DNA of 51,900 nucleotides, from the NCBI RefSeq assembly GCF_004010195.1, contig NC_057752.1, positions 4,353,626-4,405,525 of the forward strand, in the 5' to 3' direction. A program made the position numbers and the translations under genes. The stretch is from Chiloscyllium plagiosum. Lineage: Eukaryota. Position 1 is the first letter of the stretch. Every line of letters begins with the position of its first letter. A model generated the notes under the pieces. That model made no database searches. It had not been told where the DNA came from and worked only from the letters and a program-made list of their open reading frames with translations. Below are positions 1,901 through 50,691 of this stretch, one piece after another.

Positions 1901-2083
1901 TTCAGGCAACCTTTCTCCACCACACAGCAAGGAAGGCCCCGAGGGAACTCACCCCATTGTTCGGAGCAAGGATTCAAATCTTTACCAGCTGATCTGTTTT
2001 GGGGAACCATTTCGGGTCAATTCACAAACACCCGACATTTTTCCTGCTCATTTCACAAATATAGGGCACATATGATCCATTAC

Positions 2084-2202
2084 GAGAAAGTGAGGACTGC
2101 AGGTGCTGGAGCTCAGTCGAGAGTGGAGTGCCTGAAAAGCACAGCAGGACAGGCAGCTCTTCATTGTGCCCGAAATGTCGATTCTCCTGCTCCTCGGATC
2201 CA
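2084..2202. mobile_element. Short Penelope pLTR-derived insertion with 16-bp TSD
   Basis: gagaaagtgaggactgcag... arm plus an oppositely oriented gcccgaaatgtcgattctcc arm; flanked by acatatgatccattac at 2068-2083 and 2203-2218. Confidence 0.8.
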
Positions 2203-2334
2203 ACATATGATCCATTACATGTCCACACCTCTGTCTGGCTTTAAATGTCAGCTTGCTTGAGCACTGCCACTCTTGCACTCGCCTCTGATTGTGAAGGGAC
2301 AACAACACACACTCCAGGACTGAGATCCTGATCT

Positions 2335-2610
2335 AGAACTGTTATTTCACTGGGGTGCTGCACTGTCGGAGGTGCCATTCTTCAGACGTTGCCCTGTTTG
2401 TGCCTCTTAGCTGGATGGCAAAGATTCGGTCATGCTGTTTGTAGAAAAGCTTTGATTTGTCCTGCTGTCATTGCCAACTCTCATCCCTCTGTCAACCCAA
2501 CACAAATTAAGTGATCATTCACTGATTTGCTGCCTGTGAGACTTTGTGTGAAAATCCACTGTAGAGTTTGCTGACATCGCTGTGAATGCGATTGAAAGAT
2601 TCAACATTGG
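2335..2610 (+). mobile_element. Old Deu-domain SINE fragment
   Basis: 'actggggtgctgcactgtcggaggtgccattcttcag...cctcttagctggatggcaaagat'. Confidence 0.65.
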
Positions 2611-3505
2611 TGAGAAAAAGTGTTTCCACTCTGCGACTCATGTTGGCTATATCAGTAGAATGGCAATTGTTTGTGGGTCAGCCTGAATATTTGGTGTTGA
2701 GAGGGCATTTTTTTTGTCTCCATCACCATTTGAAGAGGTGAGCCCACTCAGTGAATATTGCATTGCTGCATGTCCCCAAGACAATGAAAAATCTTAGGAT
2801 GTCCTCCAAATGATAAAGATCCATTCATAATGAAGTGACACATCTATTTTATTCATTCTTTCTTGTGATGTGGGTAAGCCCAGTATTTATCTCCCATTTG
2901 ATGTTAGGGAGGATGTTCCAGCATTTTGACCCAGCGCCCATGAAGGAACAATGATATAGTTCCAATTAAGTCAGGGGGAGGGGAACTGGCAGGTTGTCAT
3001 GTTTCCATTGTGGACTGATGGACTTGAACAACTTGACCAAATATAAGAACTATGGGCAAAATGGTCAACCCCTAGAAAAGGCTGAGCCTGTAAGAAACAG
3101 GGTCTGGGCTCCAAGAATGGAAAGTATTGAAACTGCAGAAACTAAAGGGTGAGGAAATTGCAGAACACGTACTCGTCTTGGAAACGTCTGCAGGTGACAG
3201 CAACAGAAGCATTTGGAAGTGTACCAGTTGAAGGTGAGTGTGCATTGGAGATTGATCTTGGAAACAGGATCTAAGACCCAGCCAAAAAGTCAATCTGTGG
3301 TGAGAACCTAGGAAGCCCTGGGTTAGGGACCCAGCGCAGGAACAGGAACCCAGGAGCCAAGACAGTTCGAATCAGCAAGGGTTAAGTGTTCAGTTTCCAC
3401 TCAACTGCACCCACAGCTGTGATCCAGCTGATCGCTACATCGTCTGAACTCACATCAATTTACAAAACAGCATGCATGAGCCTTGTGAAAGATGCAAATC
3501 TATAG

Positions 3506-3809
3506 ATAAGATTCCCTACAGTGTGGAAACAGGCCCTTCGGCCCAACAAGTCCACACCGACCCTCCGAAGAGCAACCCACCCAGACCCATTCCCTTACAT
3601 TTACCTCTTCACCTAACACTACGGACAATTTGGCATGGCCAATTCACCTAACCTGCACATTTTTGGACTGTGGGAGGAAACCGGAGCACCCGGAGGAAAC
3701 CCACGCAGTCACGGGGAGAATGTGCAAACTCCACACAGACAGTTGCCTGAAGCGGGAATTGAACCCGGCGCTGTGAGGCAGCAGTGCTAACCACTGAGCC
3801 ACCGTGCCA
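3506..3809 (-). mobile_element. HE1-type V-SINE
   Basis: tRNA-like head (A/B box), V-domain 'gcgtgggtttcctccgggtgctccggtttcctcccacagtccaaa', CR1-like tail; ctatag flanks both ends (3500-3505, 3810-3815). Confidence 0.9.
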
Positions 3810-4214
3810 CTATAGTGGCGTGTGCCTTTCTCTTAACCAGGTTTTGGGTTCCATCGTTCGCTCACCTATGACCCATCCTATGAAGAACTAAAGTGGCATC
3901 ACTGGCCCATTGCAACAAGAGCTTGGCTGTCAGCTCCCAGCACAATTCAGATCACCCCTTTGCCAGCTGCTGCCCAGGGAGCGGAACCAAGTTCTGGAAG
4001 GCACCTGAGGAACATTGTTTCAAATAAAACTCTGCCAGCGAGACCACAAACTGTAATGGTGTTGGGATCATTCTCAACATCACTGGCTGGCTACGTACAT
4101 TGCTGGAGGAAAGTCACCCACTCAACGTGGAACCTGACGGACGAGCATTTGGATGGATGTCAGTGAGATGGAAATTGAGCAGGTTCGACCAAGTAGGTGG
4201 CTCCTCTGGTCAGC

Positions 4215-4640
4215 TGGGCTAGGTTGGTCGCATTCTAGCCTCTGAGCTGGTTGGAGGCTTTTAGCTCCATATCGCACACTAGCTTCACATTGGCTGACGC
4301 TCCAGTAGAGTAACAGGAGACTGCAGCACTACCAAAAGTACCGTCTTCTGGTTGAGCTGCTAAACTGAGGGCCCTGCCTGTCCATTCAGACGTAAACAAA
4401 CCTCTGGTGCTATTTCCGAGAAGGGGAAAGGCATTCTCTCAGTGTTCTGGCCAGTATTTATTTCAACAAACACCACAAATAAAACAGCGTTTCTGGACAT
4501 TATCGCAGATGTGAGAGCTTGCTGCTGCTTTTCCTGCTGTAGCGACTGCACCTCAAAAATATTTCATTGGCTCCACCATGCTCTGAAATATCCGGTGGTG
4601 GAGAAAGGTGTGATATACATTTCGGCCTATCTTTTGTTTT
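4215..4640 (+). mobile_element. Old Deu-domain SINE
   Basis: 'ggctgacgctccagtagagtaac...taaactgagggccctgcctgtcc...ttctggccagtatttatt...ttcattggct' plus an L2-like tail. Confidence 0.7.
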
Positions 4641-4769
4641 TCTTACCAGCCTGATCACCTGCTTTGTCCTCCACACACCTTAATCTAACTTCTCCCGTCA
4701 GTGTTCTGTGAGTGCTAGTATTAAACCATTGAGAAAGAAATGGGTTAACCAGTATGTGATTCTCAGTGG

Positions 4770-4950
4770 GCTTCACCAAGGTAGATACAGGGTGTCTGTT
4801 TCCAAACGCTTGGAGGCTCTTGAACTAGGAGAGGGAGCAAACTGAGCCATAGAGAATGTATTTCACTCAGAGAGTTGTGAATCTTTACCCCAGGGAGCTG
4901 TGGATGTTCAGTTTTCAAGTATATTCAAGGCAGGGATCAGTGGATTTGTG
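4770..4950 (+). mobile_element. Old CR1 3' coding fragment
   Basis: 'tttcactcagagagttgtgaatcttt...gctgtggatg...agtatattcaaggcag' (FFTQRVV-like segment). Confidence 0.6.
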
Positions 4951-4956
4951 GGTACT

Positions 4957-5255
4957 GATTAGATTAGATTCCCTACAGTGTGGAAACAGGCCCTTCGGCC
5001 CATCAAATCCACACTGACCCTCGAAGAGCAACCCACCCAGACCTATTCCCCTACATTTAACCCTGACTATTGCACCTAACACTATGGGCAATTTAGCATG
5101 GGCAATTCACCTCACCTACACATCTTTGGACTGTAGGAGGAAACACATGCAGACACAGGGAAAATGTGCAAACTCCACACAGACAGTTGACCAAGGTCGG
5201 AAATTGAACCTGGGTGCCTGGCGCTGTGAGGCAGCAGTGCTAGCTGCTGAACCAC
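4957..5255 (-). mobile_element. HE1-type V-SINE (internal deletion)
   Basis: (ttaga)n tail and body similar to the other copies. Confidence 0.85.
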
Positions 5256-5364
5256 CCTTCCACCCCATTTCCTGAGGGAAATGAAGGCATGTGGAGTCAG
5301 GATGAAAAATTAGGTCGAGGTGGAAGATTTCACTGAATGGCAAAGTGAGCTAGAGGCACTGTTG

Positions 5365-5426
5365 CGCTTTTCCAGCAACACATTTTCAGCTCTGATCTCC
5401 AGCATCTGCAGACCTCACTTTCTCCG
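5365..5426 (+). mobile_element. Penelope pLTR terminal fragment
   Basis: 'cttttccagcaacacattttcagctctgatctccagcatctgcagacctcactttctcc', nearly identical to 50172-50230. Confidence 0.7.
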
Positions 5427-6109
5427 CACTGAAATAGTCTCCCAATGCTCCTATCTCATATGTTTCATAAGACTTTTGGATGAGAACTCAGCTGCTGAAT
5501 CACTATTGGAATAACTGTAGTGAGCAGGAATTTAGAATTGCCTCAATATTGAAGATAAGAGGTGCTGCATTTGCACTGAAACCTAGACAAACTCCAGGAC
5601 TGAATGGTACAGTGATAAGCACCCGGGTCTGCTCTTGCACTGTGGAGAAGCTCAAACAAAGAATAGCTTGCAAAACCTAGAAGATTTCTCAATGTGGTGT
5701 TGCCTAGCAACAGTGATAAAGCTTTGAGCAGCTATCCCAGAGCTGCAATTCATATCCTGAGCCTGGTATCATTGTGCTTTCACAGCCGATCCTGTTTTAC
5801 ATCAGCATAGCATGGTGACTGCTACTCTCTTACTTCAGGAAGGGCTGGTACACTTAATAACATGTCAATTGAAGAGTCTGTTTTGCCTCCCATTAGGTCT
5901 AATCTTAGATTCTTACCAACAAATCAAAATTGCACATTCCAGGTAATCTGAATGGACACATTCACCCAAATAGCTCAAATACCCAGTTTGGGTGACACAG
6001 TGAAAAGGGATGGGATAGATACCACTCTCCCTCTGGTCCTGAATGCACTGACTGACTTGGCTGTGCTCCCACTGGTAAACGACACCCTAATTTCAATCAC
6101 TCCACTCAC

Positions 6110-6557
6110 TGTGGCCCAAAGGACAAAGCGGCCTGTTTGATCAGCAACCCCAAACACCCCCCGCAACCGTAACCTTTCATTCCCTCCAGCACCGATGCAC
6201 AGCAGCAGCAATGTACCATCTACAAGATAAGCTGTAACCTGCCAAAGCTCCCAAGGCAGCACCTTCCAAACCCACAATCACTTCCATCCAAGACAAGGGC
6301 AGCAGATACATGGGAACACCACCCCCTGGAAATTTTCCTCCAAGTCATTCCCCATCCTGACTTGGAAATCTATTTCCGGTCCTTCAGTGTTGCTGGGTCA
6401 CAATCCTGGAATTTCCTCCCTAAGGTCATTGTGGGTCAACCCACAGCACATGGACTGCAGCAGTTCGAGAAGGCAGCTCACCCCCACCTGCTCAAGGGGG
6501 CAACTAGGGGTAATAAATGCTGGGCCCAGCCAGCGATGCCCACATCCCAAGAAAGTT
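6110..6557 (+). mobile_element. Old CR1-like LINE 3' end (second family)
   Basis: Degenerate ORF end 'FRSFSVAGSQSWNFLP...GLQQFEKAAHPHLLKG' and tail 'aataaatgctggg...gatgcccacatccc'; related tails near 2850-2950, 10410-10510, 33185-33345 and 40720-40815. Confidence 0.7.
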
Positions 6558-6574
6558 TCTTCTGAAGAACTACG

Positions 6575-6750
6575 CTCTGGAATTTCCTCCCTGCAGCTCT
6601 CAGCCTCTCTATCTCTCTCATTCTTCAGTCACTCTTTAAAGCTCATCACTTGAGCCAAGCTTTTATCTTGGAGATATCGATAGCCGTGCGCTTCCGGTCT
6701 TGATGTTCACCCACAAAGCGTTGTCTGGATGTTAGAATGTGGAAGGGCAG
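6575..6750 (+). mobile_element. L2 LINE 3' tail fragment
   Basis: 'ctctggaatttcctccct...tttaaagctcatcacttgagccaagctttt...aaagcgttgtctggatgtt'. Confidence 0.55.
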
Positions 6751-7170
6751 CCGGACAGACACATTCTGAGGCAGACCAACATCCCCCACATGCCAATTAA
6801 AATATTGAATGTTGCTTCTGTTTGCCTCAGGGCACACCTGACAAGATTGATGCCCGGTCGTGGACGCTAATGCAATGCCAGGTGTGCAGCTTGAAAGTGC
6901 ACCCTGCAGCGTTACGGCAATCAAAGCCTTGTGTGCAGAGCTTTACAAGTCAGCTCCACGTGCTGCTTCCAACTGTAACAGCCTCATTTCTACCCTGCCT
7001 TCAATGTAAGAATGAGCCCAAGGGAGACTGAACAAACAGCGACAGGGAGGGAGAAAGAGCGACGGTGTTCACAAGGTGGGATTTGAGGAAGTCTTTCAAA
7101 GTGGAAAGATGGAAGGGGAAAAGGTTCAAGGAAGCAAATAGGTCCAAGGCAGTCACAAGGGTCTGCAGCC

Positions 7171-7485
7171 TGCACGGTGACTCAGTGGTCAGCACTGCTG
7201 CCTCACAGCACCAGGGTCCCAGGTTCGATTCCAGCCTCAGGTGACTGTCTGTGTGGAGTGTGCACATTCTCCCCGTGTCTGCGTGAGTTTCCTCCGGGTG
7301 CCCCAGTTTCCTCCCACAGTCCAAAAATGTGCAGGTCAGCTGAATTGGCCATGCTGAAATTGCCCATGGTGTTAGGTGCATTAGTCAGAGGGAAAACGGG
7401 TCTGGGTGGGTTACTCTTCAGAGGGTCGGTGTGGACTGGTTGGGCTGAAGGGCCTGTTTCACACTGTAGGTGATCGAATCTAATC
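7171..7485 (+). mobile_element. HE1-type V-SINE
   Basis: Full head, V-domain and tail. Confidence 0.9.
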
Positions 7486-8221
7486 AAAGCAGGACGAAAG
7501 GGGCTGAGGAGATGCAAAAAGACAGCAGGGGGATATGAAGCTGGAGGAATTCCAGAGATCCAGCAGTCTAAGAGTCTTCAGCTGGAGTCTTTTGTCTTTG
7601 ATTGAATCTGTTGGTGGTTGGGGAGCCAGTGCAGACAACAAAGAGGCCAAAGTGAAACTTAGTGCAGGACAGGACAGGGGGTTGCAGTTCTCAATCAGAG
7701 GAAGAAAGTTCAGTGAGGAAACCTTCGAAAAACATTGAGTCCAGAGCTGAGAAAAGCTGGGATAATTGTCTCAGAAACAGAAGAGCAGTGATCGGGATAG
7801 GAGCAATCAAAGATATGAAACTCTAGAGGGAGAGAACGCCCTTATCTTGGCCTGTACAGTTCACTCAATGCTTTCCACAGCACCAAGAAAATCCCATCCC
7901 TCTGACAGCAAGAGTTAAGTACCCCATCAGAATCGACACTCCCCTCCCCCTGCCCCCACACCCAATCCACACCACTCCAGCCAAGCACATGGATTCCTGG
8001 TCTATCAATACACCGACACATGGAGCCTATTAACAAAGGACCAACCTCACGATATCCACTGCACTTCCAGTTGCAACCTGCCAGTATCTGGATCTCTGAG
8101 TCCGTTGGGATTAATATCTATTCATATTAATTTTCACTGCAGTCCTTGAAGGTGGTGCTAATCCCCGGCATTGTGTTAGCTGACTTAATCCTGACAGTAA
8201 ATATGCCAGGATTAGCCGAAG

Positions 8222-8359
8222 TCAGAAGTCATACAACACCAGGTTACAGTCGAATAGATTTATGTGAAATCACAATCTTCCGGAGCGCTAGTCCTTCATC
8301 ATCTGACGTGTGACTTCTGACTTTGTCCACTCCAGTTGAACACTGGCACTTCCACATCA
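8222..8359. mobile_element. Degenerate Penelope pLTR fold-back remnant (second family)
   Basis: 'acaacaccaggttacagtc...cggagcgctagtccttcatca' followed by the opposite-orientation end 'ttgtccactccagttgaacactggcacttccacatca'; related to 12849-12970. Confidence 0.6.
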
Positions 8360-8569
8360 GGATTATCTGAAACTGGGAAGATTTGTTTCTCCCAGATCTA
8401 TTAGAATTGACAAATTCTCTCACTTACTGCCAGTGTGTACTTGGTTACAACGTGTGCATGAGGAGCCAATGCCCTGAGCAGAGAACACCACCACACCATT
8501 GAACTATCTCAATGACTGGACCTTTATATTGGAATGGTCAGAATTCTCTTCTCCATGAGAAATAAAAAA

Positions 8570-8990
8570 CAAAAAATGCAGCTGCTTAACACCTTTGACA
8601 ACCTTGAGCCATCCCCCAAAGTGCTTGAAAACTGATTTTTGTAATCCACGTTGGGATGTCGGAAGCATGGCAGCCAGTTTATACACAACAAACGTCCACA
8701 AGCAGCAATTTAATAATTAACCACATAATCTGTTTTTGAGGTAATGGTTGATGGATAAATATTAGCCATGATACCAGGGATGACTTCCCTGCTTATCTTT
8801 GAAGCAGTGCCATGGAGCCTATTAACTATATTCAAGAGGACAGTTTGGGCCATGGTCTCATCCAAATTACATCATCTCCAACTGTACGTAAACCCCTCAG
8901 TACTGCATGAGTATGTCAGTTTGTATTTTGTACTTATGTCTCTAGAGTGGGACTTAACCCCAGGACCCAGAGCAACCCATTGAGCCACAG
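8570..8990 (-). mobile_element. Old Deu-domain SINE
   Basis: Reverse complement of the Deu core: 'ggttgatggataaatattagcca...gtgccatggagcct...cccctcagtactgca...ctctagagtgggactt'. Confidence 0.75.
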
Positions 8991-12755: not shown

Positions 12756-12826
12756 AAGGGACATCAGTGTGTCTTGCTGTTCTGCAGCAGATCCGTAAAC
12801 TGCTGCAGCAGATCTTTTTGAGTCTC

Positions 12827-12970
12827 CTTCATCAGGTGATAGGTCTATCACCTGATGAAGGAGCGTCGCTCTGAAAGCTAGTGTGCTTCCAATTAAACCT
12901 TTTGGACTGTAACCTGGTGTTGGGTGATTTTTAACTTTGTACACCCCAGTCCAACACCGGCATCTCCAAA
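12827..12970 (+). mobile_element. Penelope pLTR insertion with 5' fold-back and 11-bp TSD
   Basis: TSD ttttgagtctc at 12816-12826 and 12971-12981; perfect 19-bp hairpin at 12824-12863. Confidence 0.85.
12849..12883 (+). ncRNA. Minimal type-I hammerhead ribozyme motif (Penelope-associated, dimer type)
   Basis: cac-CTGATGA-a-GGAGC-gtc-GCTCT-GAAA-GCTA-gtg: core boxes, stem II, palindromic AGCT in place of stem III, and cac/gtg stem I. Confidence 0.7.
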
Positions 12971-13271
12971 TTTTGAGTCTCACATTACCGTGGTTATGCT
13001 TCTGGTTTTGAAATTCACCAGGCCTGGTTCTTGGGTGTGGGTTTCACGACTCATGACCTGCCCACATTGGATCTGACTAAGGTGGGTGCCACTCAAAGTT
13101 ATGTGCCCAATTGTAAGGTATGACCAAACAGGCCCTGAGCTGCTGTTTACACCATCGTGCTGCCACCTCCTCTGTAGGGTGCCAAGCAATATTGTGCAGA
13201 TATGTAGTCCAGCCAACCTTCTCGAAGGCCGATGCCCCTGTTAAAGGGACGTTGTGCTGAATAATATTGGT

Positions 13272-13488
13272 GTCGAGAGTGTGGTGCTGGAAAAACACAG
13301 CAGGTCAGGCAGCATCCAAGGAGCAGGAGAGTCGACATTTCGGGCATAAACCCTTCATCAGGAATTGATGAAGGGCTTTTGCCTGAAACGTCGATTCTCC
13401 TGCTCCTCGGATGCTGCCTGACCTGCTGTGCTTTTCCAGCACCACACTCTCGACTCTGATCTCCAGCATCTGCAGTCCTCACTTTCTC
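13272..13488. mobile_element. Penelope pLTR fold-back element (about 90-bp inverted arms)
   Basis: Arms meet at cttcatcaggaattgatgaag; imperfect TSD ctgaataa(t/c)attgg(t/c)g at 13257-13272 and 13489-13504. Confidence 0.85.
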
Positions 13489-13589
13489 CTGAATAACATT
13501 GGCGGAATTTGCATGATATGACATCAGAGCAAAGAGAGGCTTCGAGGAGGATGATGGATGCAGTGAAAGGAAAGTGGAGTTCCCGGCTT

Positions 13590-16358: not shown

Positions 16359-16838
16359 ACATTCCTGATGAAGGGCTTATGTGTGAAGCATTGACTCTCC
16401 TGCTCCTCAGATTGATAGAATCCCTCCAGTGTGGAAACAGGCCCTTCAGCCCAACAAGTCCACACTGACCCTGCAAAGAGTATCACATCCAAGTCCATTC
16501 CCCTACCCTGTCATTCTACTTTTACCCCTGACTAATGTAGTTTACCTACACAGTCCTGAAGACTATGGGTAATGTAGCACGGCCAATTAACCCAACCTGC
16601 ATATCGTTGGACTATGGGAGGAAACTGGAGCACCTAGAGGAAACCCACGCAGACACAGGGAGGATGTGCAAACTCCACGCAGACAGTTACCCAAGGCTGG
16701 GATTGAACCTGGGTCCCTGGGGCAATGAGACAACAGTGCTAACCACTGAGCCACCCATGCTGCCTGACCTGCTGTGCTTTTCCAGCACCCCACATTTCGA
16801 CTCTGATTTCCAGCACCTGCAGTCCTCACTTTCACCCT
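16359..16838 (+). mobile_element. Penelope pLTR fragment split by an HE1 SINE
   Basis: 'cattcctgatgaagggcttatg...ctcctcagat' resumes as 'atgctgcctgacctgctg...cagtcctcactttc' after 16756. Confidence 0.75.
16411..16756 (-). mobile_element. HE1-type V-SINE (longer subfamily)
   Basis: V-domain and head, with an extra 'cctacacagtcctgaagactatggg' segment. Confidence 0.85.
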
Positions 16839-24632: not shown

Positions 24633-25314
24633 CTGTGTCGCTATTTTGCAGCATTGCCTTGCAAAGATGCTCGCTCTCATTTTATTGCCTGTGCCTGGTA
24701 CATGGTGGCAAGCTACAGCACTGGCAGTTGATCTTGAAGAAAGCTTCCCACAATGATCTTGCAGTCTCTGTGGCATCTCAGCTTGAATCTGGTGACAAGT
24801 CAAAGGGATCTCCAAGCATCCAGCAGCATGGGCTCAAGAATCAAAGTCAGTCACATCAAAGCATTCGCACCCACAGCAATTGCATGCAACCAGAGCTAGG
24901 AAGTTAAAAACCACTGAGAGTTTTCACTCCTCATTTATTAAATTTTACAGATAGTGAGCAAAATGATTGGGAGATAACATGCGATTGAGTTAAAAACTTA
25001 AAGGTCAGAAAGAAGTTTGAAAGATAAATTGTGGAGGTAATGCAGAAATTGGACATTCGACAAGCGTTAAAATATTCTTTCTGGACCAGTCTGGTTGGTT
25101 AGCAGTAATTAAGATTTCACATCTTGTTTAAAAACTGAATTTGAGTCAACAAGATGCAACCTTTTCAAGGACTTTTACAGTAGACCCAAGAGAATCTGAG
25201 CTAACTCAAGTCAGTTCAGTGATTCCTGATTAATTACTGTCTGGGAAGAGATCTCAACAGCACACCTTTGAGAGAAGGGTTTCACTGCGTGCGTGTAGAT
25301 TCCAGAATTTACTG

Positions 25315-27136
25315 AGGAGAAAGTGAGGACTGCAGATGCTGGAGATCAGAGTCGAAGAGTGTATTGCTGGAAAAGCACAGCAGGTCAGGCAGCATCCGAG
25401 GAGCAGGAGAGTCAACGTTTCAGGCATAAGCCCCTCATCAGGAATGAGGCTTGTGGCCCAAGGAGGCTGCGAGATAAATGGGAGGAGGATGGGGCTGAAT
25501 TTGAATGGAATTTATTGTCACGTGAACCGAGGCACAGTGAAAAGCTTTGCCTTGCGAGCAATACTGGCAGATCATATCGTTAAGTAGTATAGATAAGCAA
25601 ATAATAGGGAAACAACAGCAAAAGCAAAAACACAGGTACAGGCTAATGTTAAGACTGTTTCGAAACCGGCTGGTGCGTGTGTTCAGGCTTCTGTACCTTC
25701 TCCCTGATGGTAGAGGTTGTAGAAAAACATTGCCAGGGTGGGATGGATCTTTGAGAATGCTGGCGGCCTTTCCGTGACAGCGGGCCTGGTAGACGGATTC
25801 TACAGATGGGAGGTTGACCTTTGTGATTGTCTGGGCTGAGTTCACCACTCTCTGTAACAGTCTCTGATCTTGAATGGCACAGTTGCCACACCAGGTAGTG
25901 ATACATCCAGACAGAATGCCCTCGATGGCGCACCTATAAAAGTTGGCAAGGGTATTCGCCGTCATGCCAAATTTCCTCAGCTGCCTGAGGAAGAAGAGAC
26001 GTTGTTGGGCCTTTGTAACCAGTGCACCCACATGAAGAGTCCAAGAAAGCTTGTTGTGGATGACCCACTCCCAGGAGCTTGACACACCCCACTGGTTCCA
26101 CTCTGTGCTGTTAATGTGTGTGGGGGGGAGGGGGGGGAAGGGGGGGCGTGAGTAACATCNNNNNNNNNNNNNNNNNNNNNNNNNNNNNNNNNNNNNNNNN
26201 NNNNNNNNNNNNNNNNNNNNNNNNNNNNNNNNNNNNNNNNNNNNNNNNNNNNNNNNNNNNNNNNNNNNNNNNNNNNNNNNNNNNNNNNNNNNNNNNNNNN
26301 NNNNNNNNNNNNNNNNNNNNNNNNNNNNNNNNNNNNNNNNNNNNNNNNNNNNNNNNNNNNNNNNNNNNNNNNNNNNNNNNNNNNNNNNNNNNNNNNNNNN
26401 NNNNNNNNNNNNNNNNNNNNNNNNNNNNNNNNNNNNNNNNNNNNNNNNNNNNNNNNNNNNNNNNNNNNNNNNNNNNNNNNNNNNNNNNNNNNNNNNNNNN
26501 NNNNNNNNNNNNNNNNNNNNNNNNNNNNNNNNNNNNNNNNNNCCCTCTTGGAACAGGCAGGGACAGTGGCCTGCTGCAGGGAGAGGTTGCAGATGTCCGA
26601 GAAGACCTCTGTCAGTTGATCTGAGCATGCTCTGAGTGCACGGCCTGGTACTCCGTCTGGTCCCATCGCTTTCCTTGGATTCACAGGAAGGAAAACTGAT
26701 CTGACCTCTGATGCAGTGACTGTTGGGATAGGTTTGTCCAGACTTATTGGAATAGGTGTTACCTCTCCGCCGAAATTCTTCTCAAAGTGAGCGTAGAAGG
26801 CGTTGAGATGATCTGGGAGGGATATGTCATCATCTGCTATCTTGCACTGTCTCTGGGGGGAAGGGAGCTGAGAATGTGATAGGTGGATGGAGGTGGGGGT
26901 GAAGGTGATAGACCATTATGCATCCCTCTGACCTATCACCTTCACCCCCACCTCCATCTACCTATCACATTCCCAGCTCCTTTCCCCCCAGCCCCAACCC
27001 CCTCCTATTCATCTCTCATCCCCCTTGGCCCACAAGCCTCATTCCTGATGAAGGGCTTATACTCCAAACGTCGATTCTCCTGTTCCTCGGATGCTGCCTG
27101 ACCGGCTGTGCTTTTCCAGCACCACACTCTTTGACT
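25315..27136. mobile_element. Penelope fold-back element split by a Rex1/Babar insertion
   Basis: Left arm 25315-25497 continues at 26853-26909; inverted right arm about 26925-27136; cagaatttac at 25303-25312 and 27138-27147. Confidence 0.8.
25497..26852 (-). mobile_element. Rex1/Babar non-LTR retrotransposon 3' portion (contains an assembly gap)
   Basis: PRKAMGPDGVPGRALRACSDQL; KAQQRLFFLRQLRKFG...FYRCAIEGILSGCITTW...DPSHP...LPSGRRYRSL..RTSRFRNS; (attca/ttcaaa)-type tail. Confidence 0.9.
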
Positions 27137-30019: not shown

Positions 30020-30480
30020 CATCTCCATTAATCCACAACTGGGACACTTCATTGTCCGTTCTCAGCCTCCAACGTAGTTCCAGTGGAGCTCAGGACAACC
30101 TCGAGGAACGGCACCTCACCTTTCAACTTGGCCCTTTAAGCCTTCTGGACCTAACTCTTGGAACTATTTTAGTTTAGAACCTCTGCCCGCTCTTATATTG
30201 TGTTTCTTTGCTGGTTTGGTTATTTTTCACTTGTTTTTTTCCTTCTCTTTGCTTTATTGGGCATTCAGTCAGCAGTTATTCTGCCATTTATCCTGTTGTG
30301 TACTTGCTCCATTATTTCTTCCTTTTGCCTGGTCTCAAAACCCATTTACCTCAAAACTGATTATGCTTCTAACTTTTCTCAGTTCTGCCGAAACCTCATC
30401 GAGCTCAAACGCTAACTCTGCTTCTCTCTCCGCAAAGACTGCCAGACCTGCTGGGATGTGTTTGCTCTCATGTCTCTAGC
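30020..30480 (+). mobile_element. Old Penelope 3' end: GIY-YIG C-terminus plus decayed pLTR
   Basis: 'SVLSLQRSSSGAQDNLEERHLTFQLGPL' resembles the (R/K)LEEQHLIFRLGTL end of vertebrate Penelope endonucleases; 30385-30460 resembles a decayed hammerhead-bearing pLTR. Confidence 0.7.
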
Positions 30481-32780: not shown

Positions 32781-34499
32781 TGGAAATGGGAGAAAACAGT
32801 CAGGGAGATCATGTGATGCAGTGGGTGATGTCCCTGCCTCTGAGCCAAAAGCTCTGGGTTCAAGTCCCACTTGAGGACCAAGGAAGGCGTATCCATAACG
32901 CAGCTAAACAGATTGACCCAAAGTTTGCACCGACTTTATTTTGTGTTTGCCTTTCGTCTGCCTAGTTTCTCCACTTTCTCACCCCCCCATCCCCTCCTTC
33001 AAGATTGTTGATTTTGTGCTTAGTAATAGAACTAACCTCGGTTCCTCACCCATCTTGGGTACAATAAACAAGACACCGTCCTTAGTAATAGGGAGCCTGT
33101 TGGGATTGGATCAGGGCACAGGGCCAAGGAGCAGCACTAGAGCCTGTGATTTTCTTTAATTTAAAAAAAAATTATTTCGCTTTTTTTTATTCATTCATGG
33201 GATGTGGGCATTGCTGACTCGGCCATAATTTCTTGCCTGACCCTAGTTGCCCTGTGAGAAGGTGGTGATGAGCTGCCCTCTTGAACTGCTGCAGTCCATT
33301 GGGTGTGGGCACACCCCACAATGCTGTTAGGGAGGGAATTTCAGGTCTCCTTTGCAGAGAGATAGCACAGACACAATGGGCTGAATGATCTCTCTGTATC
33401 CTGCAGCCATTTTGTGATTCTAAACGCTGTCAGGGAAATGTTGAACAAAATGGTAAGAAAGACAGAATGGAGTGGGGGTGTCCAGTCTCAGGATTTGGGG
33501 AAGGAAGTTCATCTAAAACATGGGAGAAGCTGATTGTTAAAAGTCAGCAGATTGGTTTTTATTGCTTCGGAGTTCCCTGCTGCTTGCACACTCAATTTGT
33601 GGGATTTTTTTGCTACTTCAATCAGCAGAGTCATTTCCTGCAATCAGATTAGATTAATTTCTGTCGGTCCAAATAGTTAACATCCAGACAACCATTGTGA
33701 CTAATAATTTTTTCTTTTGCCTGTATCACCCCACATCACAGCTATTAACCTCTAACTAGTTGCTGGGGAAGAAAATTTCACTAATACAGACTGGCTATAA
33801 GCAATGTGCATCACCACACCACACTGAGTCAAACCTTGGTTAAACATTATACGTTGTCATGGAAACGGGGAAGAGAAAAATGCCCACTTGATATGGACAT
33901 TGCCCTTTGGACTATCTGTCGATGATTGACTCAGCACCAAACTGATTTTATGTGTGTGTGTGTCATTGTGAAGTGAGTCTGGGCTGTACCGAAACATCCG
34001 AAGTGTTAATGAAGTTCAACTGCACATGCTTAATGTGGCTTGGAATACTGCCTTTACTCCAGTTTCTGACACTATTTCACAAGTAGGGATCTGATATTAC
34101 CTGAGCAGTGTCAATAAGTCAGTGCTCAAAGTTATACTTTTGGGGTTTTAATGGAATTCTCTGACAGTTACAGCATCATGCAAGTTAATAAATGCTCAGC
34201 CTCACCCGTAAATATTACTGATTGATCAACGTTGAATGTTATAAGAATCCATTCCACTACCTAAAACTGAAAAACAGTGACACTGGAAATCTGAAATTAA
34301 AACAGAAATTGCTAACAAACATTCAGTAGGGCAGGCAGCATCTGTGAAGAAAGAAACGGAGTTTCTGTTTCTGTTAGAAGTTGCCCTTCTGTCCCTCTCC
34401 TCCTTGACTTCAGGTTCTGTTCCCCAGCAGGCGCTCTGGTTCCTCACCCACCTGCAGGACAATCCAGTGAGAGTCAGAAATCCAATCAGAGTCAGAATC

Positions 34500-38915: not shown

Positions 38916-40032
38916 CTTCATTAGCATAACATATTCTACTCTTTACCTTCTGATGAAAGATGTGTGCATTATTTTTATTAATGTTTTATTTGTTTGGATT
39001 TCAAACTGGTGGTATATGGGAGATGGGTAAAATTTGTGAAAGGGGGTAAAAATTAACAAGGTCGATGTTTCTGGAACCATGACTTAAAATCCATATGTGT
39101 CAGAAAGTAACTGGCTGCAAGGTGTCTCACAGTGTGAATGGAAATTTGTTTCTACTGTGGAGGTTTATGACAGGAGAGAGAAAACATTCAGCCATTAGCT
39201 GTACCAGCATCTAGAATGAACAGGGTTTTTTTTTTCAATTTAGTTCAAAAACGTTTGTGATCAGTTCAAAGGACGCCTGACAAGTCAAATGGAGCTACAC
39301 TGTCTCCTCAAAATGGAGATTGTTCAGAGCAGTTAAGGAAATAAATTACCTTTGTGAAAGCGTGTAGTTGTGAAACTTCCAGTCCAGGAGAGTCTGGTTA
39401 GAAATCTGCATCGGTTATTCAGAGTTGATAAATACATCAGTTGTGTGAGTAATCAAGGAATAGGCTTCATAACTCACAGGACAAAAACTAAGAAGAGGCA
39501 GTTAGATCAAGATGTTACAGAGTAAGAACATTTCTCAGGATTTTCATTAACTGTAAAGTAATGGTGTTGGGGAATAGATGCAATTTTGTTTGCTGTGTGT
39601 CTTGAAATCTTTCCAACGGTTATATTTAGATAGCTTTGTTTCTTTTCTTTTATTCTGATTTATTTTGTATAATAACTTCTGTTTGATTATTAAGCACACA
39701 AGGCTGTGGATTTGGTTTTATGTTTCAGTGAAAGCCTGCCATGTTAAATTGAAAGTATACAAAATATGCTCTACCAAGCCAGATTTCAGTCTGGGATCTG
39801 ACTTGTCCAGTGGTAACATCAGCTGGGATCAGAACCACCACTGTTTATGAGCCAAGATCCTATATACATTTTTTTTTAAACGTCCTCATCAATTGTCCTT
39901 CACCTTCAAAAATTTAAGTGCATGAACCTTCTGGTCTTTTTCTTACTTCGTCCCCTTTAAAACTATACAATTACTTTATATCACCTCTCCTCATTTGTAT
40001 ACAAATGGATACAAATAGATCCTGACTCACCG

Positions 40033-40130
40033 GATTTTAGATCAGAATGGTGCTGGAAGAGCACAGCAGGTCAGGCAGCACCACTCTAATCTAAATTCTG
40101 GTTTTCAGCATCTGCAGTCCTCACTTTTGT
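40033..40130. mobile_element. Tiny Penelope pLTR fold-back remnant
   Basis: 'tggtgctggaagagcacagcaggtcaggcagcacca...cagcatctgcagtcctcactttt'. Confidence 0.65.
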
Positions 40131-40572: not shown

Positions 40573-42436
40573 CTATTGGAGAAACTCTGAGAACACAACC
40601 TCCAATTTGCTGGGTGCAATTCTGAAGCAGTCGCTTGTATTATTCTGTTTGGAATCGATGTAAGGTATCTAACTATGACCATGTGTTTGACTGTCTTATG
40701 TTAGTGTGCTTGGACCCATTATCACAGAGGCTGCAGCGATTTAAGTACCCATACTCTGGGGAAGTGGGGATGAGCAATAAATAACAGCTTGGCCAGTGAG
40801 GTTCACACCCCAAAAGTAAATCAAGAAATATTTAATTTCACTGCCATTGCATTTTGCGCCTTGTACTGCACTGTTGTGCTGGAGCATTGGAAAGATCAAA
40901 GCTTAAAATTGACAATCTTTCTGTTGCTCTTCCATTGGAAGGCAGCGTCTGGGTAGGAGGCAGAACAAAGATTTGGCAATTCCGCATTTTCTCATTTTAT
41001 ATCAGAAGTGGAACAATTTGAACGAAGTGCAACTTTCATAGAACCACTACTTTTGTTCCTAATTTTTCATGCAAATTGAAGGCTGACAATTACCATAACT
41101 TCAGTTACAGAGACCTATTATAAATTCAGTGAATGAATCCATTAGATGGATTGTGCCAATTGAAAAGATCCCAGATTAACACTCTGTGCTAAGTCAGCGG
41201 ATCTCAGCTAGGAGCAGTGCTAGTGGTGCAACACTTGCCCTGAATATTAGTTGGAATAATCCTGACTGGATGTTGCAGGGAGGGGTTAAATCACTCAAGC
41301 TTCCAGTTCCAGGTGGCTACCAGGCTTCACCTGTCGGGACTGTGTCTGTGAAACAGCATACATTTGTCACAATTTTCATTACCTTCATCTGAGTTGCTTG
41401 CCGACATAAATTGCCCTGTGCAGTTTGTAAACAGTTATGGCTGTTTGGTATATATGGTGCTCACCCCAACAAGATGCCTATGACTACAGGAGAAAACTTG
41501 AAATAAAATGTTGCTCATAATTTATCTAATCAACTATTAAAATTATTTTTGAAATATACAGTGAAAGCTTCTGAAGAAGAGATATGTCAGACTCAACAAA
41601 TTAACTTGGTTTCTCTGCCACAGCTGCTGACGTTTTCCAGCTTTCTGGGCTTGTTTCACATTTCTAGCATCCGCAGTAACTGGCTTATATTAAAGCAAAA
41701 GCAGTTAAGTGATCTCGCTTTATTTGAACTTGCATTTTACAAACAATTGATAGTGTTCCTGCACATATCAAACTCCTTATTCTCAACAGCACCAGGATAA
41801 TATACCCATAGGTAGTTAGGGCTGAATTTTTCTTATTATCAGAGTGTTTCTGCTGAAACGTCCAGAGACGGGGAGGCAAGGACCTGGAGACATCGAAAGG
41901 CAATATAAGAATGAAGGTGACACAGGAGGATACCAGGCATAGAGAGAAATGACAGCAAGAAGAGGAAATAAACCTCCAATGCAACAACTTTTTGACTGTT
42001 CTCAAATTAGCTGCAATGGAACTTTGGGTGAAGCTCATTTTAGTTTGCTAAGTAATTGATTTCTTTGTATTCCCCCCACTCTCCTCTCCACAAGAGTACG
42101 ATCCCTGTTGGGTCAGAGTCCTACAGATATTTCTCTCCCCTCTGGTAGACTTCATGTGAGAGTCGAAACAGCGATTACCAGTGTGCTATTCAACAGCAGA
42201 AGGCATCATATTTCAAATCCAGTCTGGTCCCGCCTGATACACTGACACTCTTTAAGAAAGGCTTTTTATGCTCCCTCAGACGGATGGTTGCTTACCTACG
42301 TACATCCATAAATAATTACATATGGTGAAGACATTGGGAGTGAAATTGGTGTCTGCCAGTAGTGCAAAAATGAGCCATCTTGAAGTCACGATCCAATTTA
42401 GCTGCGCATGAAAATCATGAGGATGGAAATCCGGGA

Positions 42437-45028: not shown

Positions 45029-48000
45029 TGTAACAAGATCAACCAGGTGGACCTCATAGAATATGAGTTGCCTGATTAGATCAGATTAACGGCCCCTGAC
45101 AGATAGAAAACCAGTGTTGAGGTTCTGTTCACTCAGAACTGGCTCTGAGGAAGCTGGACCAGTGTCAAGGACTATGTACTTCAGTGGCGATGAGAGTGGG
45201 ATTAATGATGTAACCATGCAAAAGCCTACTAGCTGAAGCCCAACTGGAATTCAAACAGGCACTTCAACTGGCTTTGTCATTAGAAAATGTAGCAAGTGGA
45301 GTATATGAGTTACATGGTATTCCGATGGAAGTGAACATCGATACCAGGCCGACTGAGTTTGGGAAAGACCATTCGAGTGAAGGCAATTGCATAGCCTCAC
45401 TCAGGGCATATCCTGAACAGAGGGACTCTAGGCCAGCTCACAGCAAAACCCCAAAACAAAAACAAGCCTCGACAAAATGGTTAAAATTTTCTTCAGGATC
45501 TTGGCTAGCAAGTCATTGTAGTTACTGCCGGTATGTGAACTCAAGACAGCAAGAGAGTCCCACTAGATCCAAAATGGAGTAAAAGAACTCAGAGTCGAAG
45601 AGTGTAGTGCTGGAAAAGCACAGCAGGTCAGGCAGCATCCGACGAGCAGGAGAATCAACATTTTGGGTGTAAGCTCTTCATCAGGCATTCCTGACAAAGG
45701 GCTTATGCTCAAACATCGATTCTCCTGTTCCTCGGAAGCTGCCTGACCAGCTGTGCTTTTCCAGTACCACACTCTTCAACTCTGATCTCCGGCATCTGCA
45801 GTCCTCATTTTCCCCTGAGAGAACGCACGAGGCTGGAATCCAGGAGAATTCCACACCCTGGAAAGTTCTCCTACACCTGGTTTGGAACAGTTAAATTGCT
45901 TAGCAACATCCAAATCAGAACCAATCAAAATAAATGTCTGGTGAAACAGTCACCCTGTTCTAATAAACGTCGATACTGGTGCGGCTGTTTCAGGAATTGC
46001 AGAACCAGTCTTTAACAAAATCTGCTCTGGACTCCAATCCTTAAATTTGCGCAAGACCTCGGCTAGACTGTGAACCTGGACCGGAGAACCATTATAGATT
46101 AATGGTACAACTTTGGTTTTAGTCTCCTGTGAGAAGCAGCTGGTTCAGTGATTGTAGTAAGAGGCTTGGACCCAAGCTTGATGGGGTGGAATTGGTTGAA
46201 AAAGATTAATCTTGATTGACTCAACATTTTTGAATTAGAAAATGGCTGCCTGATTAAACACTTCGAGGGACTGTTAAAGGACCCAAGGCCATTTTGCATG
46301 TTGACCAGGACACAGTTCCATGATTCAGTAAGGCCCACGTAGTACTATTTGTCTTATTGGCCAAAATAGAAGCAGAAATCAGGAGGCTGGAAAGTAAAGG
46401 AATCGCCAAACCAGTCCAGTTTGTGGAATGGGCAGCACCGGTCGTACTGATTGTGAAGCCCGATAGGTTCGTTCACCTTTGTGGGGATTTTAAACAAACA
46501 GTAAACCACTTCTCACACCTGGATAAATACCCAATCCCTCACATAGAGGGTTTATACGCAAAGCTGGTCAGGGGGAGGGTGTCCTTCACAAAGCTGGACA
46601 TGAGCCATGCGTACCCTGCAATTGCAGTAAGATGAGGATTCCCAGAACTATACTACAATTAATACTCATAAGGGTTTGTATCAATATATGAGACTGCCAT
46701 TTGGGGTATCATCAGCCTGTGCAATCTTTCAGTGGACAATGGAGAACATTTTACAAGGTCTACCTCAGGTTGCCATTTATCCAGATGACATGTTAATAAC
46801 AGGGAAGACCAATAAAGAGCACTTAGAGAACTTGAAACACAGTGCTTAGATGTTTATCCAAGGCAGGCATATGCCTTAGAAGGGAAAAATGTGTGTTCCC
46901 TATAGCCCACATAAGTCACTTGGGGGGGGCCTGGTCGATACGACTGGCTTACACCTGTTGGAAGATAAAGTGAGGATGTTCAAAGATGCTTCATGTCCAT
47001 ACCAGACCTTAGGTCTTTCCTTGGATTGGTGAATTATTATAGAAAACTCATACATCACCTCTGACTTCAGTCCTGCACCCTTGAAAAAAAGGGTCAACCT
47101 TAGAAATGGTTTCATAGCCAAGACGTAGCCTTTAGGGAGGTGAAGCAGCAGCTATTGTCATCAAAGGTGTGAGCACACTATGATCCCAGGATCTGATGCT
47201 GACATGCAATGAATCCTCATACGGTATCAGGGTGGTATTGGCTCACTGATGGCCCAATGGAGAGAAACGCCCAATAGCTTCTGGCTCCCAGACTTTAGCT
47301 GATGCAGAACACAAACATTCCCTGATAGAAAGGGAAGGTTTGATGTTCATCTTTGATGTGAGAAAGTTCCACCAATACCCTTACAGATATAAATTTGTAA
47401 CAGTAACAATCCAAAAACGCGCTAGGGTGACTCAAAGAGGACAAGGTCATGCTGCCCATAGCTTCAGGTTGAATTCAGCAGTGGGCTCTCATTCTGTGCA
47501 CATACAATTACACATTGGAACTCCATCCAGGAGGACAAGGAGTAAATGGGCATGCATTGAGTGGCCTCCCATTGTCAGATACTTCACTGGTGTCACTGCC
47601 ACTGTAAGAGTCCATTCTGATTTTAAACTTTCAGGACACCCTTCTAGTCACTGCTGACAATATCCGAATGTGGACATAAAAGTATGTGGTCTTGGCAAAA
47701 CTAAAACAGCTGGGTGGTGATTGAGAAAAAACAGAAGGCCATCACAGCCAGGACTGAAACCTTTCTGGACACGGCGAGACCAGAGCACCATAGAGAAAGG
47801 CATCTTATTATGGAGAGCAAGAGTGACTGTCCAGAGTAAAGTTCGCCACTCTACCAGGGTCATCCAGGGGTTTCCAAAATGAAGATGTTGGTGAGAAGTT
47901 ACATGACCAGGATTGGATGCAGACATACCCATATTGGTGGGGCAGATCCCAAATTGCCAATGAGGACAAAGATTAGTGCCTTACGTTCCCCCACATTCAT

Positions 48001-48147
48001 GGGAGTGGCTGGGTAAACCCCGAACTCGGTTACATGTCGATTACTCTTTCATGGATTCCAACTTCTTAGTCATTGTAGACACCACTCAAAGTGGTTGGAT
48101 ATTCATAGAGATCATTTGTCAAACACAGGCACAACAATAGAAAAACT
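45029..48147 (+). mobile_element. Decayed Gypsy (Mag-like) LTR retrotransposon: short LTR, PBS, partial gag, PR, RT, RNase H, start of IN
   Basis: TG...CA at 45029-45183 then tggcgatgag; VDTGAAVS (about 45970); WAAPVV..KPD...LCGDFK, FTKLDMSHAY, RLPFGVSSACAIFQ, YPDDMLITG; SYGIRVVL; RLHVDY...FLVIVD; many stops and frameshifts. Confidence 0.9.
45589..45815. mobile_element. Penelope pLTR fold-back element inside the Gypsy element
   Basis: Two inverted arms of about 95 bp meeting at cttcatcaggcattcctgacaaag. Confidence 0.8.
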
Positions 48148-49899
48148 GGCCATCTGATCAAGATCCCGTTGTAATCTGAGATAACCTTCTTCGTTGTCCA
48201 CTACACCTCCAATTTTGGTGTCATCTGCAAACTTACTAACTGTACCTCTTATGCTCACATCCAAATCATTTATATAAATGACAAAAAGTAGAGGACCCAG
48301 CACCAATCCTTGTGGCACTCCACTGGTCACGGGCCTCCAGTCTGAAAAACAACCCTCCACCATCACCCTCTGTCTTCTACATTTGAGCCAGTTCTTTATC
48401 CAAATGGCTAGTTCGCCCTGTATTCCATGTGATCTAACCTTGCTAACCAATCTCCCATGGGGAACTTTGTTGAATGCCTTACTGAAGTTCATATAGATCA
48501 CATCAACCACTCTGCCCTCATCAATCCTCTGAGTTTTTTGAAGAAGTAACAATCAAGTTTGTGAGACATGATTTCCTACGCACAAAGCCATGTTGACTAT
48601 TCCTAATCAGTCCTTGCCTTTCCAAATACATGTACATCCTGTCCCTCAGGATTCCCTCCAACAACTTGCCCACCACTGACGTCAGGCTCACTGATTTGTA
48701 GTTCCCTGGCTTTTCCTTACTACCTTTCTTAACTGGTGGCACCACATTAGCCAACCTCCAGTCTTCCGGCACCTCACCTGTAACTATCAATGATACAAAT
48801 ATCTCTGCAAGAGGCCCAGAAATCACTTCCCTAGCTTCCCAAAGAGTTCTGGGTACACCTGATCAGGTCCTGGGGATTTATCCACCTTTATGTGTTTCAA
48901 GATATCCAGCACTTCCTCCTCTGTAATACAGACATTTTTCAAGAAGACACCTCTCCTTACAAATTTGTTTCTCAATTTCCCTCTGACTATTAGGGGGTCT
49001 GCAATACCATCCCAATAAGGTGATCATCCCTTTCTTATTTCTCAGTTCCACCCAAATAACCTCCCTGGATGTATTTCTGGGAATATCCTCCCTCAGCACA
49101 GCTGTAATGCAATCCTTTATCAAAAACACCACTCCCCCTCCTCACTTGCCTCCCTTTCTATCCTGGAACATTAATCTGCCAGTCCTGTCCATCCCTGAGC
49201 CATGTTTCTGTAATTGCTATGATATCCCAGTCTCATGTTTGTAACCATGCCCTGAGTTCATCTGCCTTCCCTGTTAGGCCTCTTACATTGAAATAAATGC
49301 AGTCTAATTTATATCGTTCACTGCTTTGTTCCTGCCTGCCCTAACTATTTGTTTGGTACAGTTGGGAAAAGGAGCAAGTCAGTGTCAGACTGATCTCTTT
49401 CCTCCCACCTTACTAGTTTAAATCCTCCCGAGCAGCTCTAGCAAATCTCCCTGCCAGTACATTAGTCCCCTTCCAGTTTAGGTGCAATCCATCCCTTTTG
49501 TACAGGTCACTTCTACCCCAGGAGAGATTCCAATGATTCAAAAATGTGAATCCTTCTCCCATACACCAGCTCCTCAGGCACACATTCATCTGCTCTATTC
49601 TCCTATTCCTACCCTCACTAACTTGTAGCACTGGGAGTAATCCAGATATTACTACTCATAAGGACCTCCTTTTTAAATTCCTGCCTAACTTTCTATATTC
49701 TCCCTTCAGAATCTTATCCTTTTCCCTTTCAATGTCGTTGGTTTCAAGTGCACAATGAGCTCCTTCTGGTCCCTGTTCCCCTTGAGAATATTCTGTACTT
49801 TCTCAGAAATATTTTTGATCCTGGCACCAGGGAGGCAACACACCATGCTGATTTTTCACTGCTGGCCATAGAAACATCAGTCTGTGCCTCTGACTAGAG

Positions 49900-49935
49900 A
49901 ATCGACGTTTCGGGCATAAGCCCTTCTTCAGGAAT
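49900..49935 (-). ncRNA. Minimal hammerhead ribozyme motif (dimer type)
   Basis: Minus strand: attc-CTGAAGA-a-GGGC-ttat-GCCC-GAAA-CGTC-gatt; palindromic ACGT and a GUC cleavage triplet. Confidence 0.7.
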
Positions 49936-50228
49936 GAGGAAAGTTTGTCCAGCAGGCTAAGATAAAAGGTAGGGAGGAGGGACTTGGGGGAGGGGCGTCG
50001 GAAATGCGATAGGTGGAAAGAGGTCAAGGTGAGGGTGATAGGTCAGACTGGGGTGGGGGCCTCCCTACCTTTTATCTTAGCCTGCTGGACAAACTTTCCT
50101 CATTCCTGAAGAAGGGCTTATGCCCGAAACTTCAATTCTCCTGTTCCCTGGATGCTGCCTGACCTGCTGCGCTTTTCCAGCAACACATCTTTAGCTCTGA
50201 TCTCCAGCATCTGCAGACCTCATTTTCT
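49901..50228. mobile_element. Young Penelope pLTR fold-back element with 14-bp TSD inside CR1 ORF1
   Basis: TSD cctctgactagaga at 49887-49900 and 50229-50242; perfect 71-bp inverted arms 49907-49977 and 50060-50130. Confidence 0.9.
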
Positions 50229-50691
50229 CCTCTGACTAGAGAGTCCCCTAACACAATCGATCGCTTGGAACCTGACGTACCTCTCGTCACCCTAGAGCCA
50301 GTCTTGGTACCATCACTCCCTACATTTTCCAAAACAGCATACTTGTTTGAGATGGGGATAGCCACAGAAGACTCCTACGCTACCTGCCTACCCCCCTACC
50401 TTTCCTGGAGGTAACCCACCTACCTGACTGTATCTGTGGCGTTTTTTTCTTCCTATAACTGCCATCCAGCACACCCCCTAGCTCTTGTAAATTCCTCATT
50501 GCATCTAACTGCTGCTCCAACCAATCCATGCGATCTGATAGGATGCACAGCCAAAGACACTTCCTACAGCCATATCATCAGTAATATGGAAACTCTCCCT
50601 AAACTCCCACATCTGACAGGAAGAGCACATCACTCTACTAAAGGCCACCTTTGCACCATCTACAGATCCAGAAAATAACACAGCCTTACTA

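Follow-up and report, generated by a model that had tools for sequence, protein, structure and literature searches.

Penelope-like end stubs with minimal hammerhead motifs in a repeat-rich stretch of Chiloscyllium plagiosum DNA

Two families of Penelope-like ends

A stretch of 51,900 nucleotides from Chiloscyllium plagiosum (contig NC_057752.1, positions 4,353,626 to 4,405,525; the window in the following) contains numerous short repeat units with hammerhead ribozyme motifs, and the question arises whether these are ribozyme modules with a role in the host or debris of a retrotransposon. A preliminary description had viewed them as pseudo-long terminal repeats (pLTRs) of Penelope elements without open reading frames (ORFs), and as a candidate under-described system of latent modules that cleave themselves or form double-stranded RNA (dsRNA). 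Self-comparison of the window and a profile search recovered ten insertions of ORF-less Penelope-like ends, eight of family A and two of family B, which together cover 1,961 of the 50,947 called bases (3.85%). The units are probably dead-on-arrival, ORF-less cDNA stubs of the pLTR of endonuclease-positive (EN+) Penelope-like retrotransposons (PLEs), in two clear families and perhaps a third. They are new, very abundant families of a known kind, namely PLE end stubs with minimal hammerheads, and a functional claim for them is not supported.

All ten pieces listed in the preliminary description proved to be parts of these two families. However, 25315-25497 and the unlisted piece 26853-27136 form one insertion split by about 1.35 kb, and 16359-16412 together with 16757-16836 is one single-orientation copy split by a short interspersed nuclear element (SINE). 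Cores are absent from the pieces at 5359 and 40029, and the piece at 2084 holds the 3′ half only.

Insertion anatomy

Target-site duplications (TSDs) of 10–16 bp, as reported before, flank five of the ten insertions (2084, 12827, 13272, 25315-27136 and 49897), and a TSD of 8 bp flanks 8219, which brings those with at least 8 bp to six. Among 400 random boundary pairs, a score of at least 10 was reached by four and a score of at least 8 by eight. Candidates of 6–7 bp at 5359 and 16359 are near chance, and no TSD was found at 40029 and 45589. An adjacent inverted copy is present in eight of the ten insertions, all head-to-head and with differing turn-around points, in agreement with the earlier description.

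With C3 of CUGANGA numbered as +1, direct arms end at +121 to +126 in family A and at +117 to +119 in family B. Four insertions have an opposite arm that ends 31–36 nt earlier (13272 at +90, 45589 at +95, 27136 at about +91, 8219 at +86). A one-sided tail of 30–40 bp is thus seen in 13272, 25315-27136, 45589 and 8219, and roughly so in 40029. Published insertion units of EN+ PLEs consist of an inverted, 5′-truncated copy and a 30–40-bp tail within TSDs of 8–10 bp (Arkhipova et al. 2013, PMC3846280; Craig et al. 2021, PMC8557442). The window insertions share with them the head-to-head arms, the tail on one arm, TSDs of about 8–16 bp, junction palindromes and solo pLTRs; they differ in that all ten lack ORF sequence and that half of them turn around or end at the upstream border of the core. 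EN+ PLEs have a single ORF for a telomerase-like reverse transcriptase and a GIY-YIG endonuclease; as no such ORF could be linked to the window units, their assignment to EN+ PLEs is based on the hammerhead motif together with this anatomy of ORF-less head-to-head arms, one-sided tail and TSDs.

The green anole element Poseidon, in which the tail marks two internal start sites of reverse transcription (Frangieh et al. 2024, PMC11167929), is similar in these two sites bracketing the tail, in the priming of both strands, in the A+T-rich target and in the lack of RNA-seq ends at the ribozyme cut. In contrast to Poseidon, no ORF could be linked to the window units, and they are not assignable to clade Poseidon or Neptune.

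Eight of 18 arms, in five of the ten insertions, start between −8 and +2 (arm ends were assigned by hand; rough p of 0.03 after allowing for 20 bins), and none starts at the cut site. Four arms reach 46–128 nt further upstream in two subfamily versions, and six start downstream at scattered points. The clustered starts, all within 8 nt of the core, fit equally well a second origin, in which dedicated short, non-autonomous masters (SINE-like, about 125 nt, with the hammerhead at the head) give rise to the units by using Penelope protein in trans. The absence of ORF sequence and of any protein link would suit such masters, and non-autonomous PLE derivatives and trans mobilisation by pLTRs have been described. 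The long upstream arms in two versions and the scattered downstream starts argue against them, and so do about 788 family B RNA reads sharing 17–23 or more nt upstream of the core, which indicate that longer templates exist. We regard short masters as an unlikely, though still credible, source of the units.

Neither tandem arrays of the unit nor partial-tandem pLTR-ORF-pLTR master copies were found in the window. This anatomy already contradicts the idea that the units are non-LTR retrozymes spreading via small circular RNAs. Retrozymes are likewise ORF-less, carry a type I hammerhead, derive from pLTRs and are reported in a cartilaginous fish (Cervera and de la Pena 2020, PMC7229834; Li et al. 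bioRxiv 10.64898/2026.07.22.740005), and the TSDs would also agree with them. The known ones, however, are head-to-tail tandems with a ribozyme per unit that are processed to circles, whereas the window units are dispersed head-to-head stubs of variable length, no arm of which begins at the cut site. A retrozyme origin is therefore scarcely credible.

Hammerhead cores: sequence, decay and masking

The core of family A reads UUC CUGANGA A GGGC UUAU GCCC GAAA C G U C GAU and that of the window copy of family B CAC CUGAUGA A GGAGC GUC GCUCU GAAA G C U A GUG. Both agree with the published consensus CUGANGAH-G..C-GAAA-palindrome-UH, with CUGANGA, one unpaired base, a G10.1-C11.1 helix II, GAAA, a palindromic 15.2-16.2, UH and a short helix I. 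A strict minimal-hammerhead descriptor matched five sites in the window, compared with a mean of 0.015 in 200 Markov resamples. An Rfam search of the window gave no hammerhead family at E up to 5, and exact-pattern scans gave no match in viral contigs or metagenome contigs.

The two stem II types described before, GGGC/GCCC and GGAGC/GCUCU, are both present, but most family B copies have GGAGC/GCUCC and the U is peculiar to the window copy (T>C at 12872 in 1,828,336 of 2,327,775 summed contig depth). Covariation between the families also held, with compensatory differences in helix I (U-A vs. A-U) and helix III (C-G vs. G-C); it is an already published trait. Indeed, minimal hammerheads in metazoan PLE pLTRs were described by Cervera and de la Pena (2014, PMC4209133), and the likeness comprises the type I core, the unpaired base between 9 and 10.1, the G10.1-C11.1 pair, the lack of a loop 3, the palindromic 15.2-16.2, the short helix I, several covarying families per genome and mostly single dispersed copies, some close together on opposite strands. 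The identification of Penelope-type ends with minimal hammerheads is thereby supported, and the view of an under-described system is not, because that paper already contains the motif with its additional base behind A9 and its palindromic helix III, as well as the covarying families and the genome-wide single copies. Family A is nearly the Nematostella(2) row of its comparison, and the turtle row resembles family B in its GCU palindrome and an AAUAAA downstream. The rows compared include no cartilaginous fish, and family A has, unlike the published motifs, a helix I of only 2 bp plus a mismatch. Published counts are about 4,000–9,000 per genome, and five strict matches in 51 kb would mean far more if the window is typical.

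Parsed by position rather than by structural alignment, the 11 full cores comprise one perfect core, three with wobble pairs and seven broken ones. Catalytic positions differ at 6 of 99 sites in nine family A cores; outside CpG, changes affect 3 of 90 catalytic and 21 of 402 non-core sites (p 0.59). Decay of the cores thus looks neutral, as judged from a test on nine cores that lacks the power to reveal weak selection.

All four usable cores lie inside head-to-head units and are predicted to be buried in fold-back duplexes. For three of them the predicted helix II pairing probability is 0.00 in the whole insertion, compared with 0.98, 0.97 and 0.18 when only the arms are considered; the fourth is predicted to form a duplex of −259 kcal/mol with a partner 1.5 kb away. 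Hairpins of −121 to −181 kcal/mol predicted for four insertions bear out the suggested potential to form dsRNA. In these units the antisense arm precedes the core in transcription and would bury it by fold-back, in competition with self-cleavage. Minimal hammerheads moreover need a dimer and cleave weakly (PMC4209133). A helix III dimer is predicted for three family A cores and not for the family B core, and the nearest same-strand full cores of one family (family A) are 3–20 kb apart.

Abundance and transcripts

Contigs and reads were compared to the stretch 12720-13620 at a likeness of 82. Matches were found in at least 250,684 of 21.2 million contigs of a first organism and at least 250,528 of 23.1 million of a second, figures that are not copy numbers. 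Both families are clearly very abundant in the two species, as had been supposed. In thousands of contigs of both species, the 3′ ends are fixed and unrelated A+T-rich sequence comes next (loose ends behind 12971 and 13489/13490, agreement 0.33–0.41), and contig joints at +86 to +92 and, for family B, at +87 match the tail boundary. Some contigs of both species repeat the 33–35-nt family A tail head to tail (joints 13488/13490 to 13456; 5–10 contigs per joint). A-to-B joints on opposite strands also occur in contigs, but carry no weight because either end of a contig can lie in a repeat.

RNA reads were taken from one single-cell poly(A) run, of which about 2% was read. The two families are matched by 6,835 of 12,955,460 records, and 98% of the matching reads run on into other sequence; a second run gave no matching read, which carries no weight either way. 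The reads thus stem from other copies in the families, none of this sample reaching the unique flanks of 12720-13620. Read starts or ends did not pile up at any position, the predicted cuts 12880 and 13392 included, in this one library, whose silence does not exclude cleavage because a poly(A) library cannot capture the untailed upstream product and loses the 30-nt downstream product. Outside the poly(A) peak described below, sense exceeds antisense about 1.5-fold, so sense reads are not depleted. A-to-I editing gave no signal: A>G and T>C places number 84 in RNA and 31 in DNA, and transversions likewise 84 and 34.

These data bear on the proposal that the units form a genome-wide population of latent ribozymes and dsRNA modules with effects on host transcripts and under selection. 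Their very high abundance, the four usable cores, the strong hairpins, the RNA matches and the poly(A) site in use directly behind the family B core would be in line with it, as would the under-representation of Xenopus retrozyme copies in genes. Against it stand the broken majority of cores, their neutral-looking decay, the predicted masking of every usable core, and spacings unfavourable for the dimer that these motifs need. The RNA reads show neither end pile-up nor sense depletion, and minimal hammerheads cleave poorly in vitro, that of the anole requiring the element's protein. The checks on decay and on strand bias or cleavage products, both of low power, thus went against latent self-cleaving modules, and we consider such a population very improbable.

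A poly(A) site beside the family B hammerhead

The family B copy carries a canonical poly(A) signal at 12892..12936 on the plus strand, with ATTAAA at 12892-12897, cleavage at about 12910-12912 and a GU/U-rich element at 12915-12936. Loose poly(A) ends were found in 429 reads at 12908 and 377 at 12912 (806 in total), which represent one site at about 12910-12912 because of templated A's. Cleavage takes place 13–15 nt past ATTAAA, just before the GU/U-rich stretch and about 30 nt past the predicted ribozyme cut. Sense depth falls from 1166 to 441 across this site and is level across the predicted cut (1129 vs. 1166). Family B ends of other copies hence serve as poly(A) sites for RNAs uncut at the hammerhead, as shown in this one RNA sample, in which reads were counted without collapsing duplicates and some loci may have genomic A-runs. 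The reads extending upstream of the core enter two shared sequences (agreement 0.80 and 0.73) and represent either longer copies of two subfamilies or a small number of loci. Family A has no such hexamer.

A pLTR is known to act as 3′ untranslated region (UTR; PMC2377424, which makes no mention of polyadenylation). A poly(A) site beside the ribozyme is absent from the examined portion of the Poseidon paper (PMC11167929), and a search of the openly accessible literature turned up no report of a poly(A) signal next to a PLE ribozyme, although subscription papers, Repbase/Dfam, the supplements of bioRxiv papers or supplement file 1 of PMC4209133 may describe this feature or the two families. Among the published minimal hammerhead rows, about 11 of 56 have one of the hexamers AAUAAA and AUUAAA no more than about 15 nt from the cut, counted by eye without formal control in flanks that are A+U-rich.

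The hammerhead in the 3′ UTR of Clec2 (PMC6765202) shares the geometry of family B, with the cut just upstream of the poly(A) signal, so that cleavage would remove the tail. Family B ends might by analogy be portable cassettes of hammerhead plus poly(A) site, from which protein-assisted or trans-dimer cleavage would strip the tail, giving a Clec2-like decay switch at many loci. If true, this would offer a possible function for PLE hammerheads, and regulated cleavage beside the poly(A) site would constitute a new genome-wide RNA decay switch. The Clec2 motif, however, is active, conserved and confined to a single gene, whereas the family B motif is minimal and repeated and its cleavage hypothetical, and we hold the cassette idea to be highly improbable. 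The poly(A) site that accompanies the family B ribozyme is new here and offers a lead of modest weight that can be tested.

A model for the origin of the stubs

Formation as cDNA stubs of a pLTR would proceed as follows. The TSDs of 8–16 bp would reflect a staggered cut made by the element protein in A+T-leaning DNA. Reverse transcription would start inside the RNA at one of two sites about 32–36 nt apart (about +90 and +126 in family A, about +87 and +119 in family B), and the observed ends, one arm with and the other without the tail, would follow from these two sites as in the anole element (PMC11167929). The head-to-head pair would be formed afresh at each site, either by priming on both of the cut strands or through folding back of the first cDNA, as the differing turn-around points suggest. 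Synthesis would often stop just upstream of the hammerhead core and not at the cut site.

A one-unit transcript would begin in the upstream pLTR and, in family B, end at the poly(A) site of the downstream pLTR. As the only such start sites then lie near the 5′ end of this transcript, the product would be a short ORF-less stub ending near the transcript start, and only read-through RNAs could yield ORF-bearing copies. The family B end acts as a poly(A) site, in the manner expected of a retroelement 3′ UTR. Because polyadenylation occurs upstream of both start sites, RNA ended there could not be copied from its 3′ end, which would explain the dominance of ORF-less stubs. Inserted copies would then decay neutrally, and they are carried along as passengers in other RNAs, in both orientations. 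With the surviving cores hidden in a predicted fold-back duplex, self-cleavage in host RNA should be rare, and the copies are probably harmless since the mirror arm, made first, hides the ribozyme.

Several observations weigh against this model. No link to an ORF for a PLE reverse transcriptase or GIY-YIG endonuclease emerged: word-index protein searches were empty, and a HMMER search gave three weak matches only (an Ig-repeat protein and an adhesion receptor, both unrelated, and one without family). Four of the ten insertions have no convincing TSD, three inverted arms (2084, 12827, 49897) do not end at the tail boundary, the neutral-decay test had little power with its nine cores, and the clustered 5′ ends are shared with the short-master alternative. 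The stubs add two very abundant families to a known class. Two details help with the unsettled life cycle of PLEs, namely the bunching of 5′ ends immediately upstream of the core and the polyadenylation of family B transcripts ahead of both start sites of reverse transcription.

Individual insertions

At 2084..2202, a minus-strand family A direct arm with tail (+49 to +124) and an inverted arm (+13 to +48; 2164-2199) abut at +48/+49 in family coordinates, resembling twin priming, between exact 16-bp TSDs (2068-2083 / 2203-2218). The plus-strand family A unit at 5359..5425 is a single arm (+59 to +125) whose 6-bp TSD candidate is at chance level. Another single arm on the plus strand (16359..16836; about −6 to +125) has a broken core and the SINE insert at 16413-16756. 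Two family A units on the plus strand are head-to-head pairs. That at 13271..13490 has an inverted arm (−3 to +90) with a near-intact core (13361, minus strand), a tailed direct arm (+2 to +126) with a core lacking C3, a 14-bp TSD with one mismatch and a predicted hairpin of −167 kcal/mol. The pair at 45589..45816 (inverted −3 to +95, direct −4 to +126) has two broken cores and no clear TSD.

The family A insertion 25313..27136 (minus strand) consists of a tailed minus arm (25315-25497 and 26853-26911; near-intact core at 25441) and a plus arm without tail (26927-27136; broken core at 27045), flanked by 10-bp TSDs (25303-25312 / 27138-27147). It is split by 25498-26852, which includes an assembly gap and which we take to be similar to a long interspersed nuclear element (LINE). 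Its hairpin 26853-26991 (−121 kcal/mol) draws sub-threshold Rfam microRNA matches; a microRNA identity was rejected, as the hairpin is the turn-around of the two PLE arms. A family A variant at 40029..40127 (plus strand) has an inverted arm from +48 and a direct arm from +73 to +121. At 49897..50231 (plus strand), a family A insertion with differing upstream sequence has an inverted arm from about −128 to +31/35 with the sole perfect core (C3 at 49931, minus strand), a direct arm (−46 to +126) with a broken core, and an exact 13-bp TSD; the inverted arm ends 3–7 nt past the cut, in 4-nt microhomology with the target.

The family B insertion 8215..8357 (plus strand) comprises an inverted arm (about −3 to +86; 8306-8219), the broken core of which (8303) lacks C3, and a direct arm from +73 to the tail end at +117, with an 8-bp TSD (8207-8214 / 8358-8365). 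The other one, 12824..12970 (plus strand), has a 19-nt fold-back head, a direct arm (−7 to +119) with a near-intact core (C3 at 12852, predicted cut after 12880) and an 11-bp TSD (12816-12826 / 12971-12981).

Two families were clear where at least three had been proposed; the third is plausible but weakly shown and has no usable core. Its decayed candidate members lie at 30385..30480 (plus strand; nhmmer E 0.017), 34270..34379 (minus strand, without core; E 0.0023) and 41568..41680 (plus strand, with a core remnant, the weakest of the three; E 0.27). They resemble each other when compared from 30385, 34365 (minus strand) and 41568, with zero to two of about 290 random stretches reaching the score. 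They faintly resemble the middle of family A (nhmmer E 0.002–0.27) and not family B.

Other features of the window

The window is repeat-rich eukaryotic DNA of 32–51% GC with many SINE and LINE pieces. SINE copies occur as close inverted pairs at 11852-12606 and 16417-18045; the arms 11992-12159 and 12299-12466 are 87% complementary and 139 nt apart. Such pairs are a further source of dsRNA, as likely as the PLE pairs. The minus-strand stretch 48115-48552 and repeats at 10787-11600, 18239-20060, 23531-24635 and 42441-43552 hold LINE reverse-transcriptase fragments (RVT_1) and several nested LINE 3′ ends, some of them in opposite orientation. A broken pol remnant resembling LTR retrotransposons, presumably Gypsy-like, spans 45820-48130 with an RNase H domain at 47250-47654, and the 45589 unit lies at its left edge. 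A 34-bp minisatellite of 20 copies without hammerhead core (36571-37256) runs into an assembly gap.

Pyrimidine-rich tracts ending in AG, similar to splice acceptors, are located upstream of family A cores (26999-27032, 50060-50079); in Drosophila virilis an intron ends at helix I (PMC4209133). Plus-strand sequences resembling splice donors are present at 15030-15070 and 14255-14275, and the window may lie in a gene.

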